DNA of 63,491 nucleotides, taken from the NCBI GenBank assembly GCA_038206475.1, contig JBBRAU010000004.1, positions 1 through 63,491 of the forward strand, given 5' to 3'. The position numbers and the translations under genes are program-made. Shown here piece after piece: positions 6,772-21,530 of this stretch. The DNA comes from Patescibacteria group bacterium. GTDB taxonomy: Bacteria > Patescibacteriota > UBA1384 > JBBRAU01. Each line of letters begins with the position of its first letter. Position 1 is the first letter of the stretch. The notes under the pieces were generated by a model. It was not told where the DNA came from and ran no database searches. It was given only the letters and a program-made list of their open reading frames with translations.

Positions 6772-7977
6772 TCATCCGCTAATGTTTTGAGTGGCAGCAA
6801 AGATTGGACCCAAAATAGCAAATACCAGGAAGGCGACACCGGCACCCATGAAAACAATAATGACTGGCTCAATCAATGAGGCAAAGGCCTTGATTTTGGT
6901 ATCCGTCTGCTCCTCATAGAAACGCCCAAGTGTCTCCAGCACATCATCCAGTTTACCGGTTTGCTCGCCGACCAGAATCATTTGGCTGATCAAAATGGGG
7001 AAATCGGGTGTTTCCGAGAGCGGTGTTGACAACGGTACGCCCTTTTCAACCTTGCTGACAGTGTAGAGCAAAATGCGCTGGTAGACGCGGTTGCCAATAG
7101 TATCGGCTGTGAGTTTAATTGCCTCGACAATCGGGATGCCGGAGCGAATTAACAGGGAAAAGGTTTTTAAGAAGTTGGTCATATAAGCGCCCTGCATCAG
7201 TCCACCAATAGGCGGTGTTTTTAAGATAGCGACTGCAAACCAGTTTTTGCCAGTTTCAGTGCGCAGGAATAGCCGAATGGCGGTAGCTAAGACGATGACC
7301 AGGGCCAGAGCCAAGTACCACTGGTCAGTCAAAAAGTGCGACAGCCAAATAAGGAAGTGTGTAGAGATGGGCAGCGCCGTTTTAGTATCGGCGAACAGCG
7401 GGATGAGCTGCGGAATAATTTTTGTCGTCACATAGACACCCATCACCACCATGACAACCAAAATGACGGCCGGATACGCTAAGGCGCCTTTGACCTTGGA
7501 TTGAAAGTTCGTGTCATGCTCCAGTCGGTCAGCCAACGACAGTAGCACTTTCTCTAGCTGGCCAGAGGCCTCGCCAGCCCTAACCAGCGAGATAAAGACT
7601 TTGTCAAAAATTTGATTTTGCCTAGCCAGCGCAGCCGAGAAACTTTGACCACCCTCAAGGTCTCGGATCATCTCTGCAATAGCGGCTTTGAATTTTTTGC
7701 TCTGGACCTGGCGGTCAACAATACGCAGGCCTTGAATAATCGGCACGCCGGCTGAAATCATCGTCGCCAGTTGGCGAGCAAACATGGCCCGATCTTTTAA
7801 GGAGACTTTGCCAAAGGGGTTGAAGTGTGCCAAAATCGAAGCCTTTTTCTCGATGGCCAGTGGCCGCAGTTTGTTGGCGGAGAGTAATTTTTGGGCATCA
7901 GCAATAGTCGACGCTTGTAAAACGCCGCTCAAGGTATTGCCGTATGGATCAAGGGCTTGATAAGAAAAAGTTGGCAC
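6772..7977 (-). CDS. pilC: type IV pilus platform protein PilC (GspF family)
   Basis: 401 aa with the duplicated T2SSF domain architecture and three TM segments. Adjacent to pilT and pilB. Confidence 0.92.
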   Translation of the reverse strand: MPTFSYQALDPYGNTLSGVLQASTIADAQKLLSANKLRPLAIEKKASILAHFNPFGKVSLKDRAMFARQLATMISAGVPIIQGLRIVDRQVQSKKFKAAIAEMIRDLEGGQSFSAALARQNQIFDKVFISLVRAGEASGQLEKVLLSLADRLEHDTNFQSKVKGALAYPAVILVVMVVMGVYVTTKIIPQLIPLFADTKTALPISTHFLIWLSHFLTDQWYLALALVIVLATAIRLFLRTETGKNWFAVAILKTPPIGGLMQGAYMTNFLKTFSLLIRSGIPIVEAIKLTADTIGNRVYQRILLYTVSKVEKGVPLSTPLSETPDFPILISQMILVGEQTGKLDDVLETLGRFYEEQTDTKIKAFASLIEPVIIVFMGAGVAFLVFAILGPIFAATQNISG

Positions 7978-11869: not shown

Positions 11870-11877
11870 CTGCCTCC

Positions 11878-12144
11878 TTACTGGCTGCTAAACGGATTAT
11901 CTCGCGAGAGGGATCCGGCTGGCAGACTGATGGGCCAGTCTACATTGGCTTGGTACTGCGGCAGTTGCTTAAACACCGGGCTCGTGAGCGCGTTCAGCGC
12001 AGCAACGTCCACCGGCGGTTTGGCAGTAGCGACAACCTTAGTCAAACTGGTGGTGATGAACAGGTAGAGAAAGCCGCCAACGATGACGAAACTAGCAATG
12101 AATGCTAGGAGAGTAGAGCTGTGGAGTGAGCTTTTCATTTTCAT
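11878..12144 (-). CDS. small single-pass membrane protein in the pilus operon
   Basis: 88 aa with an N-terminal TM helix (LLAFIASFVIVGGFLYLFI). Lies between the pilO-like gene and pilB. No family recognised. Confidence 0.5.
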   Translation of the reverse strand: MKMKSSLHSSTLLAFIASFVIVGGFLYLFITTSLTKVVATAKPPVDVAALNALTSPVFKQLPQYQANVDWPISLPAGSLSRDNPFSSQ

Positions 12145-12153
12145 AGCGCTTCC

Positions 12154-12750
12154 TTACGGTACGATATTATTGGCTGCAGGGGCAGGCTGAGCCGTTAGGC
12201 TGGATGTTGCTGCTGGCGTGCCGGCATCGCTGGCCAAGATCGTTGTCCCCTGCAACTGAACAGTGATGGCCCCGTTGTTTTCTTGACTGCTCCAATTAAT
12301 AGAGGTGGTGGTGATCAGACGTAAGTTGAGGTACAGCGCATCAATGTAGTTACGAATCGAAGAAAGCGGGCCTGTCACACTAACCGAAACCGGCACAGAC
12401 TTACCGCTGGTCTGCAAACTTGGCGCAAAATTAGCCATTGTGACGCCGGCGCGGTCAGCCAAACCTTGCATCTGCAGCAACATAATCGGGATGCCGTCGC
12501 TCGCGGACGGTACGGCAATATCCAGTGTACTCAGGTCTTTCTTTTTGCCGTCCAGTTGGTTGGCGGCAGTGTCTAGCTGCGTCACAGCCGTTTGCTTAAC
12601 TGTCTTTTCGGCGATTTTTTGCACCTCGTCGGTTTTGACTTGCATATACGCCGGCAACTGCCAGTGCCAAAAGGCGTAAAGGCAACCGAAACTGGCCACA
12701 TACAGCAGCAGACCGATAATCATTGGCGTGGATGAATTTTTGGGCATCAT
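12154..12750 (-). CDS. pilO: PilO-like pilus alignment protein
   Basis: 198 aa with an N-terminal TM, a coiled segment, then a ferredoxin-like C-terminal region (IPIMLLQMQGLADRAGVTMANF). 4-nt overlap with the upstream pilN-like gene. Confidence 0.6.
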   Translation of the reverse strand: MMPKNSSTPMIIGLLLYVASFGCLYAFWHWQLPAYMQVKTDEVQKIAEKTVKQTAVTQLDTAANQLDGKKKDLSTLDIAVPSASDGIPIMLLQMQGLADRAGVTMANFAPSLQTSGKSVPVSVSVTGPLSSIRNYIDALYLNLRLITTTSINWSSQENNGAITVQLQGTTILASDAGTPAATSSLTAQPAPAANNIVP

Positions 12751-18123: not shown

Positions 18124-18681
18124 TTGGAAATCTATCCGAACCAACAGCGGTTCAGTAAAAAGTTCGTCTCCGACTACGGCAAACTCGGCAAACTGGTTGA
18201 AGGTCTCAAGTCCGTAGACCTGGTCGTCGTCATGACCATCGGCAGTTGGGACGGACTCCACGTCGGACACACTCGCTATCTCGAAGAGGCCAAAGCGAGG
18301 GGTGACTGTTTGATTGTTGGTGTCGACACCGACCGAGCAATCGAACTGTACAAAGAACCAGGCCGGCCACTTGTCGCTGAAGAATTCCGGATAGAAATGC
18401 TAGCCAATCTGGAGTGCGTTGACTACATCACGCTGGTGGGTGATGTCGATGACCAAGGCAACTGGCAATACGGTCTTGTCAAGGCGACGCGCCCGAACAT
18501 CTTCATCGTACAGGGCTATCCGCCAGAACAAGTCGCCCAGCTCCAAACGTACTGCGACCAGGTCATCGAACTGCCCCGCCAGGAATTGGCCTTTTCGACG
18601 ACAAGAATGTTCCGCAAGGCCGGCCAGGCGTATTTGGCAAAAATACTGCGCGCCGCTCAAGAGGAGGATAGCGGTGACTAA
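18124..18681 (+). CDS. cytidylyltransferase-fold nucleotidyltransferase (RfaE domain II / TagD-like)
   Basis: TTG start preceded by AAAGGAAA. The motif GSWDGLHVGHTRYLEEAKARGDCLIVGVDTD...GRPL fits the HxGH nucleotidyltransferase family. Confidence 0.7.
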   Translation: MEIYPNQQRFSKKFVSDYGKLGKLVEGLKSVDLVVVMTIGSWDGLHVGHTRYLEEAKARGDCLIVGVDTDRAIELYKEPGRPLVAEEFRIEMLANLECVDYITLVGDVDDQGNWQYGLVKATRPNIFIVQGYPPEQVAQLQTYCDQVIELPRQELAFSTTRMFRKAGQAYLAKILRAAQEEDSGD

Positions 18682-19510
18682 CCTGCTTGCCCACATCCCC
18701 GTGCTCAGCCAGGCTCAGCTGGGTTTGTTTGTCCGTCTCAACGGTCGGGTAGATCGGCTGCTACTCATCGGCAGCTCACTCCTCCAGCAGTTCCAGCCGA
18801 AGTGGCAGGAGATCCGGGCGATTGCTCCGTCTGAAATGGCCGACATCCTCCGTCGCCTCAACTACTTTCCGGTGGTTGAGGTGATAGAGACAACATACGC
18901 ACCAGACCTAGCCGGCCAAGAGCTGGTTGCCGCCCGCGATGCACTAACTGTGGCGGTACTCAACCACTTCTACCCACAGCACCTGGTAACCTGGGAGACT
19001 GCTTTCCTTCGTTGGCACACCGACAACGTCAAAAGCAGTCTGCCGGCCGTCTTCGATCGAGAGTCACACGACACCTTTGATCAAGACGTGGTGAGGCAGG
19101 CCATTCAGGTTGCAGCACTCAGTTCCGACTGGTGGCGTCATGTCGGCTGTGTGGTCGTGAAGGGGGGTGAGAACATCCTGAAAGGGTACAATCACCACCT
19201 ACCATCAGACTACACGCCATACATAGACGGCAGCCCTCGAGACTTCGTGCCTCCTGGCCAAGACCGCATGATCGATTCGTCAATCCACGCTGAGAAATCG
19301 GTCATCGCCGTTGCGGCACGGTACGGCATCGCCTTAGAAGGCAGCAGCTTCTACGTGTCAGTCTTCCCCTGCCCCGTCTGCGCGCGCGACATGATCACCG
19401 CCGGTGTTCACCGGTGCTTCTTTCCGTCAGGCAACGCCTGGCTGGGCACCGATGAAGCCTTCCGAACCGCAGGTGTGGAAATGATCTACGTACCACTCAA
19501 AAACCCCTAG
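18674..19510 (+). CDS. deoxycytidylate (dCMP)/cytidine deaminase-family protein with about 140-aa N-terminal extension
   Basis: C-terminal zinc motifs HAE...PCPVC. Proposed GTG start at 18674 is preceded by GAGGAGGA and overlaps the upstream stop (GTGACTAA). The track ORF start at 18419 lies inside the upstream gene in another frame. Confidence 0.7.
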   Translation: MTNLLAHIPVLSQAQLGLFVRLNGRVDRLLLIGSSLLQQFQPKWQEIRAIAPSEMADILRRLNYFPVVEVIETTYAPDLAGQELVAARDALTVAVLNHFYPQHLVTWETAFLRWHTDNVKSSLPAVFDRESHDTFDQDVVRQAIQVAALSSDWWRHVGCVVVKGGENILKGYNHHLPSDYTPYIDGSPRDFVPPGQDRMIDSSIHAEKSVIAVAARYGIALEGSSFYVSVFPCPVCARDMITAGVHRCFFPSGNAWLGTDEAFRTAGVEMIYVPLKNP

Positions 19511-19533
19511 CCGTATGGCTAGGGGTAGTTTTT

Positions 19534-20529
19534 TTAACCGATTGGAAAGGTGACCGGGATAGCGCGACCGGTGGTCGCGTCAAGCTCTGGCTCAATGAGA
19601 TGAAAGTGTAGATGCCTGATGGTCGCCCCAGTCCGTGTTGTGTCGCCGAAGCGCAACGCGAACCCGCCACCAGCCAGGCTGAACTCACGAATCGCCCACC
19701 CGACCAGCTCGCGAACAGAAGCCAGGTCTTCCACGGTCAACTCGCAGAAGGTCTCTTTATGCTCTTCGCCAATGATCAACAGCTGGACCCGAGCGTTTGG
19801 GTAGGGCTCGTTAATCCGGGTGATGAACCACTTGCCCTCGTGACGCAGGATCGGGTGCGGATGGTAGATAAAGCTGCCTGGGCAGAAGGGACAGTGGCCG
19901 GCGGCGAGGATCTTGGCCATAGTCTCTCGGTAGCTCACGCTTCGGACATACGTCGGATCAACGAAAGCGCCCGTCCCTCCCGGACGCTTTTGGTCAAGCG
20001 TGGTGAAGGTGTAGGCATAGCGGTGACGCTGGTCAGCCAGATGCTCCTCTCGGTGCACCACCTGCCAATCAGCCGCATCGAAGGCGGGGAAGTACGCATC
20101 TCCAGGCGGCTGAGCGTGCACCTCTGTCAGGTAGAGCCGTTCGGCCCGCGGTAGCGCTTGGGTGTATATTTCCGCGCCACCGGCAATCATCACCTCTATC
20201 TTCTCAGCTGAATTAGCCGGCAAGCCACGCAGAGCGTCGTCGAGTGAGCCGGCAAGCCGGCACGATGTAGTGCTACTCATCTGCCGCAAAGCTTGATTGG
20301 CTTGTTCCGAGAGCAGACCGGCTCGACTGAGGATAATCGTTTGACGATTTGGCAGCAGACCACCAAGCCGGTCAGTGATCGACTCGAATGTTCTGCGGCC
20401 CATAATAACCGTCTTGCCGATCGTTAACTCCTTGAAGTGGCGAAGATCGGCCGGGAGATGCCATGGAATCTTCCCCTGGTCCCCGATCACACGGTTATCC
20501 GCCACCGCTGCAATAATGGCAATGTTCAT
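19534..20529 (-). CDS. folA: dihydrofolate reductase fused to a C-terminal HIT-family domain
   Basis: N-terminal about 190 aa aligns with DHFR (MNIAIIAAVADNRVIGDQGKIPWHLPADLRHFKELTIGKTVIMGRRTFESI). C-terminal about 135 aa has the HCPFC and HLHFHLI histidine-triad motifs. Start moved to the ATG at 20529 (MNIAI). Confidence 0.8.
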   Translation of the reverse strand: MNIAIIAAVADNRVIGDQGKIPWHLPADLRHFKELTIGKTVIMGRRTFESITDRLGGLLPNRQTIILSRAGLLSEQANQALRQMSSTTSCRLAGSLDDALRGLPANSAEKIEVMIAGGAEIYTQALPRAERLYLTEVHAQPPGDAYFPAFDAADWQVVHREEHLADQRHRYAYTFTTLDQKRPGGTGAFVDPTYVRSVSYRETMAKILAAGHCPFCPGSFIYHPHPILRHEGKWFITRINEPYPNARVQLLIIGEEHKETFCELTVEDLASVRELVGWAIREFSLAGGGFALRFGDTTRTGATIRHLHFHLIEPELDATTGRAIPVTFPIG

Positions 20530-20585
20530 GGCGCCCTCTCTGTGCTTGAAAAAATAGGGAGCGACTTGCACTCCCCGTAGAGGTG

Positions 20586-21530
20586 TTAGTATCCCACCGG
20601 AATGCCTTTGATCAGCGGGTGCGGATCGTACCCCTCCAGGCTGAAATCTTCCAGCTTGAAGGCGAACAGATTCGTTATCTCGGGATTGAGCGTGACGGTC
20701 GGCAGTGGCCTCGGCTCACGGGACAGGATCTCCTTGGCGAAAGGGACATGCGGCAGGTAGATGTGCGTATCGGAAGTGTGGTACACCACCTCCCTCGCCC
20801 GCAGACCAGTGACTTGGGCCACCATCAGCAGAAGCAGTGCGTACTCGGCGATATCGAACGGGAGACCGACCACAGCGTCGGCACTCCGCTGGAAGACATC
20901 GACGCTGAGTTCGCCTTGGGCGTGGAAGAACTTGAAGAAGCAGTGGCAGGGTGCGATAAATACCCGGTCACTGTCCAGCGGGTTCCAGGCCGTCACGACC
21001 AAGCGCCGCGAGTCGGGGTTGCGCCTCAGCTCTTCGACCAAGACCTTGATCTGGTCCACTGGCCGTGCAACCTCGATTAAATGCTGCTCGATGAGGTGCG
21101 CGATGTCATCTTTAGTCCAGTCCGGGGTGATCGTGTCAGCAATCAGCCGGGCGATTTGCTCGGGTGTACTGCGCAGTCCAGCGTTGAAGCTGCGCCACTG
21201 GGCGCCGTAAATGCGTCCCAGCTCACCGACCGGAAGCGGCGGCGAGACGAGGTTGCTGGTTTTTTCGTCAGCCCACTGATCCCAAATCTTGGTCGGATAG
21301 ATTGCTTTGAGATCAGCCAGGTTGGTACTGCCAGACAGAAACCAGAGCAGCTCGGCGCACAAGGGCTTAAACGAGCTTTTGAAGCTGCGGGTGGTACTGA
21401 GCGGAAAGCCGTCCTGGAGGTTGAACCGCATGGTTTGGCCAAGGGTGGCGAGGTTGCCCATCTGTTGCGGATCAGACTTGGGCTTGCCCTCACTGAGCAC
21501 GCGCTCAATGAGATTAAGGTACTGCTGCAT
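20586..21530 (-). CDS. thyA: thymidylate synthase (ThyA) family enzyme with atypical active site (Asp at the invariant Asn position)
   Basis: End-to-end ThyA similarity: AELLWF, IWDQWAD, IYGAQWR, DSRRLVVTAWNP, IAPCH, FQRSADAVVGLPFDIAEYALL, and an about 50-aa insert as in L. casei-type TS. See findings for the deviations. Confidence 0.85.
   Translation of the reverse strand: MQQYLNLIERVLSEGKPKSDPQQMGNLATLGQTMRFNLQDGFPLSTTRSFKSSFKPLCAELLWFLSGSTNLADLKAIYPTKIWDQWADEKTSNLVSPPLPVGELGRIYGAQWRSFNAGLRSTPEQIARLIADTITPDWTKDDIAHLIEQHLIEVARPVDQIKVLVEELRRNPDSRRLVVTAWNPLDSDRVFIAPCHCFFKFFHAQGELSVDVFQRSADAVVGLPFDIAEYALLLLMVAQVTGLRAREVVYHTSDTHIYLPHVPFAKEILSREPRPLPTVTLNPEITNLFAFKLEDFSLEGYDPHPLIKGIPVGY

Follow-up and report, generated by a model that had tools for sequence, protein, structure and literature searches.

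A dihydrofolate reductase–histidine triad fusion and its co-inherited thymidylate gene module in a patescibacterial genome

Why would a bacterium join dihydrofolate reductase (DHFR) to a histidine triad (HIT) domain in one polypeptide? The thymidylate cycle (ThyA, DHFR and SHMT) belongs to standard textbook biochemistry, is an important drug target and is taken to be completely understood. The question is raised by a gene on contig JBBRAU010000004.1 of the Patescibacteria group bacterium assembly GCA_038206475.1, of which a stretch of 63,491 nucleotides was analyzed as a whole (referred to here as the window). The initial annotation, made from the DNA letters only, had described this gene as an in-frame fusion of an architecture not known among the described DHFR fusions, and had suggested that it couples folate recycling to a reaction on a compound in which a nucleoside monophosphate is linked to a leaving group (NMP-X). 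As detailed below, the encoded protein consists of a normal FolA-type DHFR, a flexible linker of about 14 amino acids (aa) and a HIT domain whose catalytic motif is intact. Its HIT domain belongs to an uncharacterised subfamily that lies, in 29 of 29 loci, inside a co-inherited module made up of ThyA, DHFR, HIT, a long deaminase and a cytidylyltransferase-like nucleotidyltransferase (CytTr).

The fusion gene starts with an ATG at position 20529, and no stop codon is found inside its 331 codons, which as annotated initially form a single frame continuing from the DHFR into the HIT part. A GTG at 20571 is an unlikely alternative start since the homologues share the methionine encoded by the ATG. 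The domain scan proposed in the initial annotation gave a strong DHFR_1 match (PF00186 on aa 3-179, model positions 2-158, E 9e-51, 172 bits with a curated cut-off of 25), and the NCBIfam type 3 DHFR model scored 130 bits on the fusion protein. The catalytic landmarks of DHFR can be read from the protein (W23, D28 in LPADL, G44-R45, G117-G118 and LYLTEV) and presumably correspond to W22, D27, R44, G95-G96 and T113 of E. coli FolA. The motifs HCPFC and HLHFHLI, on which the HIT assignment had been based, are located at residues 212-216 and 306-312. With the Pfam models, the approximately 147 C-terminal residues gave weak matches below the cut-offs, namely 18.1 bits to PF01230 (HIT; cut-off 21.5) and 19.4 bits to DcpS_C. 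PF01230 scores 25.8 bits on the relative from locus L017 and matches 25 of 41 longer relatives at E<=1e-3, and phmmer connected the C-terminal part to solved HIT proteins with E-values of 2e-4 to 5e-3. No ThyA domain is present on the fusion polypeptide, ThyA being encoded by a separate open reading frame (ORF), and the protein is thus not a bifunctional DHFR-TS (TS, thymidylate synthase).

The fold of the protein was predicted with AF2, using an alignment of 26 fusion homologues for the whole-protein model. This model reached a mean predicted local distance difference test score (pLDDT) of 89.2 and a predicted template modelling score (pTM) of 0.62, with the block of lowest confidence (63) at aa 181-190, in keeping with two well-folded domains tethered by a flexible linker. 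Modelled by itself, the C-terminal domain gave a pLDDT of 89.6 and a pTM of 0.84. A Foldseek search of the PDB with this model yielded 84 matches at E<=1e-3; the top ones listed are all HIT proteins, among them an E. histolytica HIT protein, a Legionella HIT hydrolase, E. coli HinT and human HINT1/2. With the Foldseek-independent aligner VIA, 30 of the 30 top PDB matches belonged to the HIT superfamily. The best was 3r6f (Z 11.1, root mean square deviation 2.7 over 105 residues), and 4zgl (Z 10.5), human HINT2 (9.8), the Ap4A phosphorylase of M. tuberculosis (9.2) and Fhit (8.3) were also found. According to the model, the C-terminal domain thus adopts the alpha+beta fold of HIT proteins, and one of the refuting outcomes named in the initial annotation, a C-terminal part lacking this fold, did not occur.

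HIT enzymes are obligate dimers that move a nucleoside monophosphate (NMP) from an NMP-X compound to water or phosphate via a His-NMP intermediate. The active-site residues are retained in the family, and C213, P214, F215, C216, H257, R293, G295, H306 and H308 are invariant in the 26 aligned fusion proteins, H306 and H308 also in 14 further homologues. Position 303 is T or S in all 26; in an alignment made by eye, T303 corresponds to Ser107 of Hint and the invariant Arg293 occupies the position of Hint Asn99. At the third triad position, 22 of the 26 fusion proteins have H and 4 have Q; Q is also found there in the HIT-ThyA fusion P0196 described below. The window protein has His310 and does not show the His-x-His-x-Gln motif of the GalT branch, and its C-terminus is FPIG, lacking the Trp of HINT1. 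The conserved CxxC/His set of the HIT domain presumably forms a zinc site. A canonical HIT protein of 116 aa (82 bits to PF01230) is encoded elsewhere in the genome of the window, which argues that the fused HIT domain is an additional, specialised copy.

The fusion recurs widely. A search of 5.8 billion proteins returned about 26 full-length fusion homologues of 308-349 aa (32-47% identity, approximately 100% coverage), one of them from a metagenome-assembled genome (MAG) of Candidatus Sungbacteria. A profile of the C-terminal domain, run against 1.84 billion representatives of 50%-identity clusters, retrieved 163 clusters at E<=1e-30, and architectures were read for the best 150. Among these, 40 are DHFR-HIT fusions; Pfam confirmed DHFR_1 in 37, while the remaining three had been identified as fusions in the homologue search. 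The majority (about 106) are standalone HIT proteins of 140-195 aa. Three are tandem HIT-HIT proteins (P0199, P0200, P0259), and in one, P0196 (464 aa), HIT is fused to ThyA. In a FastTree phylogeny of the HIT domain (approximately 140 aa), at least 36 changes between fused and unfused are needed, compared with about 50 when the labels are shuffled. As the fused state is scattered on this poorly resolved tree, it is read only as several fusion or fission events. Among the species genomes examined, DHFR and HIT are fused in L013 (Wolfebacteria), L015 and L016 (Campbellbacteria). In L014, L020, L022, L028, L038 and L039 the two genes adjoin, HIT beginning at the DHFR stop codon or overlapping it; they are divergent in L036, and a few genes apart in L017 and L044. 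On this distribution, the fusion is best regarded as one state of a conserved gene pair. L028 additionally carries a second copy of the module HIT (7404-7859, minus strand), a divergent paralogue just upstream of DHFR. As to the novelty of the architecture assumed in the initial annotation, full-text literature searches gave no description of a DHFR-HIT fusion or of a HIT module. The architecture is, however, already named in databases: public annotation pipelines call the proteins simply DHFR or DHFR/HIT hydrolase, and the automatic annotation of JGI labels one homologue 'dihydrofolate reductase/Ap4A HIT family hydrolase'.

The surroundings of the HIT gene were compared in 29 loci, consisting of the window, 13 loci from species genomes, retrieved with a 12-protein alignment, and 15 from an even sample of the phylum. 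All 13 species-genome loci contain ThyA and HIT and 12 of them, all but L017, DHFR, all within about 4 kb; the long deaminase is present in 13 of 13, and CytTr wherever the contig is long enough. In the phylum sample, where the HIT subfamily occurs in 14 of 400 genomes (3.5%) and is fused in 5 of these 14, ThyA and the long deaminase accompany it in 15 of 15 loci, CytTr in all 12 that are long enough, and HIT always directly follows DHFR or ThyA. DHFR was not seen near HIT in 3 of the 29 loci. Dut, SHMT, Tmk and a P-loop kinase are recurrent further neighbours. An expanded form of the module is present at L017:6100-15500, in a 1.2-Mb MAG doubtfully labelled 'Pseudomonadales'. It has a RibD_C-type reductase in place of FolA, and interleaved with HIT, ThyA, the long deaminase and CytTr are genes for an aspartate/ornithine carbamoyltransferase-like protein, a CofE-like gamma-glutamyl ligase, a RimK-like ATP-grasp protein, a Cof-type HAD phosphatase and NAD synthase.

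All five parts of the module are found between positions 18124 and 21530 of the window (Table 1). ThyA lies upstream of the fusion gene on the same strand, and the gap of 56 nt from its stop codon agrees exactly with the distance given initially. Within this gap, a terminator-like hairpin with an 8-bp stem and a T-run is located at 20556-20576 on the minus strand, which may act as an attenuator or partial terminator between ThyA and DHFR-HIT.

Table 1. Positions of the fusion gene, its domains and the neighbouring module elements in the window
Feature	Coordinates	Strand	Description
DHFR-HIT fusion gene	19537..20529	-	331 codons, continuous ORF; stop 19534-19536
DHFR domain, aa 1-182	19984..20529	-	PF00186, NCBIfam type 3 DHFR; pLDDT mostly >85
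Linker, aa 183-196 (KRPGGTGAFVDP...)	19942..19983	-	Lowest-pLDDT block at aa 181-190
HIT domain, aa 197-331 (~135 aa)	19537..19941	-	N-terminal helix; C213-x-x-C216, H257, R293, T303, H306/H308/H310, C-terminal FPIG
ThyA, module subtype (Arg21->Pro, Asn177->Asp)	20586..21530	-	PF00303 E 1e-83; motifs KSDPQQ, GLPFDIAEY
CytTr, cytidylyltransferase-like nucleotidyltransferase, 185 aa	18124..18681	+	PF01467 E 8e-11; TIGR00125 above cut-off; HxGH, STT motifs
Long dCMP-deaminase-like gene, ~278 aa	18674..19510	+	PF00383 E 8e-16; start inferred from homologues, overlaps CytTr stop
Bidirectional terminator hairpin	19503..19526	both strands	10-bp stem, T-runs on each strand; between convergent HIT and deaminase gene ends

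To see which functions go along with the module, 14 HIT-positive genomes were compared with 18 HIT-negative genomes of the Candidate Phyla Radiation (CPR) that encode ThyA and DHFR. CytTr was found with more than 200 bits in 14 of 14 HIT-positive and 0 of 18 HIT-negative genomes, two distant relatives in the latter scoring 120-145 bits. Full-length Dcd (dCTP deaminase) showed the reverse tendency (1/14 versus 9/18). A deaminase match in a frame of 280-370 aa, or at a contig end, is present in all 14 HIT-positive genomes, and no long deaminase was found beside ThyA or DHFR in about 60 module-negative loci. Seven of the 18 HIT-negative genomes encode a short ComEB-type dCMP deaminase, mostly adjoining Dut or DHFR. 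Taken together, the module looks like a third means of supplying the substrate of ThyA, which would replace Dcd or ComEB. The genome of the window itself (730 kb in 13 contigs, 97% complete, a size typical of CPR/Patescibacteria) has RNR (ribonucleotide reductase), Dut, SHMT and Tmk, and a deoxynucleoside kinase was not found in it. Such a kinase as the displaced function gave no clear pattern in the comparison, most of the weak matches being Tmk. Tmk, the enzyme acting on dTMP, is often the next gene after DHFR in module-negative genomes. The idea that HIT is a phosphorylase yielding dTDP and replacing Tmk was not supported, Tmk being found in 9 of the 14 module genomes. In the genome of the window, the Tmk match (G000:C6:49044-49587, outside the window) is split over two reading frames and interrupted by one TGA; the gene may be frameshifted, misassembled or a pseudogene.

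The ThyA proteins of the module (those of the window, L013-L017, L020, L022, L028, L036, L038, L039, L044, L071 and L111-L124) share a change at Arg21, the dUMP-phosphate ligand in the DRTGTGT loop. Arg21 is lost in 28 of 29 module ThyAs and kept in 61 of 62 others. Pro, Gln or another residue stands in its place in all 14 loci of the first set, in the ThyA portion of P0196 and in 13 of the 14 loci of the phylum sample, where L119 is doubtful; the listed 12 module-free CPR ThyAs keep it, except L012. In a large subgroup of the module ThyAs, Arg127' is also lost (DSRR to LRT). M141V, A142F, Q151K, Q162H, Y164F and G204S are further changes specific to the module ThyAs. That one or two of the four arginines binding the phosphate are consistently missing suggests an altered phosphate end of the substrate. 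As the module ThyAs form one clade, the association of the Arg21 change with the module is partly a matter of shared descent. A link of the HIT module to Asp in place of Asn177 was also considered and rejected, this Asp being confined to the window and L013 (2 of the 28 module ThyA genes in the loci), with Asn kept in the 26 others.

The best family matches of CytTr are of the RfaE domain II, TagD and ECT types, and enzymes of the cytidylyltransferase family convert NTP + X-P to NMP-P-X. It may also be the NMN adenylyltransferase of the cell: CytTr is the sole PF01467 match above cut-off in the genome of the window, where NadE was not found by tblastn, but its best family matches are of the three types just named. 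CytTr and the long deaminase form a single polypeptide in P0270 and P0276. Close relatives of CytTr (P0269, P0271-P0275 and P0278) carry a conserved uncharacterised N-terminal domain of 300-350 aa, in which a weak HD-domain match was obtained for P0271 only, the HD motif being degenerate in the others. The alignment of 12 homologues divides the long deaminase into a family-specific N-terminal domain of about 135 aa (with PVLHxGY and FLRWD) and a zinc deaminase domain. A search with the N-terminal domain matched 164 proteins, all with this deaminase domain, and the 120 listed are 265-303 aa long. Its PVLHxGY motif resembles HxGH, and a second nucleotidyltransferase-like domain was considered and rejected (hhalign probability 1.4%, no Pfam or PDB match). 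In the window protein this domain (18674-19090) reads IPVLSQAQ in contrast to the IPVLHxGY of the homologues, so that HxGY is lost. At a distance of a few genes from its module, the module-positive genome L016 also encodes an ordinary short dCMP deaminase of 165 aa (11871-12368), next to Tmk and a P-loop kinase, so that the long deaminase may not be just a second ComEB.

What the HIT domain does in this setting can be proposed only tentatively. The reading that we favour, while considering it somewhat less than probable, is that HIT liberates a pyrimidine dNMP from an NMP-X compound made by CytTr, in a carrier-linked route from dCTP to dTMP that we infer from the comparisons above. CytTr would join a pyrimidine dNTP, most simply dCTP, to a phosphorylated carrier X-P, giving dCMP-P-X and pyrophosphate (PPi). 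The long deaminase, translationally coupled and sometimes fused to CytTr, would then turn cytosine into uracil on the carrier, and His308 of HIT would attack the alpha-phosphate, setting free the dNMP and recycling X-P. The product released would be dUMP for ThyA, or dTMP if ThyA methylates the carrier-bound nucleotide first, and DHFR would regenerate tetrahydrofolate alongside. In sum, dCTP would be converted to dTMP, PPi and NH3 at the energy cost of the Dcd/Dut route and with no free dUTP, and the fusion to DHFR or ThyA would hold the releasing step in one complex with the methylation step. The more specific version, in which both the long deaminase and ThyA act while the nucleotide is attached to its handle (dCDP-X to dUDP-X to dTDP-X) and HIT releases dTMP, appears rather improbable.

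Several observations fit the carrier scheme. The fusions CytTr-deaminase, DHFR-HIT and HIT-ThyA pair proposed neighbouring steps, the missing Arg21 of the module ThyAs suits a substrate with a substituted phosphate, Dcd is absent from most module genomes, and HIT sits where Tmk follows DHFR in other CPR genomes. The coupling of folate recycling to an NMP-X reaction suggested in the initial annotation is likewise backed by the comparative data, since in every locus examined HIT is either part of a fusion with DHFR or ThyA or the next gene after one of the two, and since a nucleotidyltransferase that could make an NMP-X compound is co-inherited with it. It is still something we infer. A number of points weigh against the carrier scheme. 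No gene for making the carrier X is conserved in the module, neither a CytTr-HIT nor a deaminase-HIT fusion was seen among the fusions found, and a two-enzyme cycle of making and breaking a bond is more complicated than a simple pyrophosphatase. The ordinary Dut and Tmk are kept in the genome of the window, so that free dUTP is still handled there. The loss of Arg21 and the presence of the module may simply have been co-inherited in one ThyA clade, and the ThyAs of L. casei and E. coli tolerate substitutions at this position. The window HIT domain has Gln249 (19783-19785) where 25 of 26 fusion homologues carry His, and the genome counts come from related, partly incomplete MAGs.

An alternative that we consider unlikely is that HIT acts on free nucleotides, supplying the deaminase or ThyA with monophosphate by hydrolysis of dCDP/dCTP, dUDP/dUTP or a dinucleoside polyphosphate. 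HIT would then take the part of gp56, the dCTPase-dUTPase of the phage T4 dNTP complex, and CytTr would have a separate or regulatory role. A source of dCMP would indeed be needed, given that Dcd is missing in 13 of 14 module genomes and that the search for a deoxynucleoside kinase in the genome of the window was negative; Arg293 could bind a beta-phosphate, and the solved relatives include Ap4A phosphorylase and Fhit. What this alternative leaves unexplained is the 14/14 versus 0/18 co-occurrence with a catalytically intact nucleotidyltransferase, the CytTr-deaminase fusions and the Arg21 loss of the module ThyAs, and it has to accommodate a genome that already encodes Dut. It is rather improbable that HIT is a Hint-like enzyme with a generic housekeeping role, for example as a nucleoside phosphoramidase or acyl-adenylate hydrolase, and that its fusion to DHFR provides only co-expression or a dimerisation scaffold and no shared chemistry. 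Its best structural matches are indeed Hint-type and zinc-containing HIT proteins, an obligate HIT dimer would dimerise the attached DHFR, and the whole-protein model has no confident domain interface (pTM 0.62). A generic role is, however, hard to reconcile with the canonical HIT protein already encoded in the same genome, with a subfamily that stands beside ThyA in 29 of 29 loci and is fused to two different thymidylate enzymes, and with the scatter of the fused state on the HIT tree.

It is quite improbable that HIT serves as a regulatory sensor of dTTP, dCTP or Ap4A that tunes DHFR or ThyA with little or no turnover. The dTMP branch point is a classical target of regulation by dCTP and dTTP, and the window copy has Gln at the otherwise conserved His249. 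Nevertheless, the nucleophilic His and the whole active-site set are invariant in at least 26 fusions and 14 further homologues, and standalone forms are in the majority among the best 150 clusters. That two genes were merely joined by a sequencing or assembly frameshift has a negligible probability, and this explanation was rejected: several other genomes do hold both parts as separate genes in different frames with A-rich junctions, but in the window the frame is open throughout, the junction is not a homopolymer, and the search for the same architecture elsewhere, called for initially, found it with a comparable linker in at least 40 independent 50%-identity clusters from independent samples.

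Beyond the fusion itself, the analysis brings out the complementarity with Dcd and ComEB, the CytTr-deaminase fusions and the module-wide Arg21 loss in ThyA. Together, the features of the module argue for an extra chemical step or a carrier-bound route in the dTMP synthesis of a large group of ultra-small symbiotic bacteria. If true, the version of the route in which ThyA, too, acts on the carrier-bound nucleotide would be a dUTP-free and previously unknown variant of one of the best-studied pathways of biochemistry. As the module proteins are small and look soluble, a direct test by reconstitution is feasible.

Among known systems, the DHFR-TS of protozoa and plants comes nearest in architecture. 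There, too, DHFR is covalently linked to a second thymidylate-cycle enzyme, and, as would be the case here, a dimeric partner holds two DHFR units; P0196 extends the likeness by joining the HIT partner directly to ThyA. In contrast to DHFR-TS, the partner in the window is HIT, ThyA is a separate gene, and no channelled metabolite is known. With the Hint and zinc-containing HIT proteins (3r6f, 4zgl, 3o0m, E. coli HinT 3n1s, human HINT1/2) the domain shares the fold (Z 9-11), the HxHxHxx motif with its middle nucleophilic His, the CxxC + His set and a Ser/Thr before the triad. It differs from them by its low identity (15-27%), the extra N-terminal helix, Arg293 at the Asn position (by eye), the C-terminal FPIG, the variable third His/Gln and the dedicated context of thymidylate genes. 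NitFhit of flies and worms (PDB 1ems, Z 8.3) offers the same Rosetta-stone pattern of a HIT domain fused in some lineages and separate from its partner in others; unlike here, the partner is of the nitrilase family, the HIT domain belongs to another branch and there is no link to thymidylate. Functionally, the nearest analogy is the dNTP enzyme set of phage T4 (gp56 dCTPase-dUTPase, cd dCMP deaminase, td and frd), which also leads from dCTP to dTMP via a deaminase at the dCMP level, TS and DHFR. The T4 dCTPase is, however, Dut-like and not a HIT protein, there is no nucleotidyltransferase, and the enzymes are unfused. Finally, the Dcd/Dut and ComEB routes employ other families and a different number of steps than the module, which adds a nucleotidyltransferase and HIT, yet all of them probably serve the same task in the cell, the supply of a pyrimidine substrate for ThyA.

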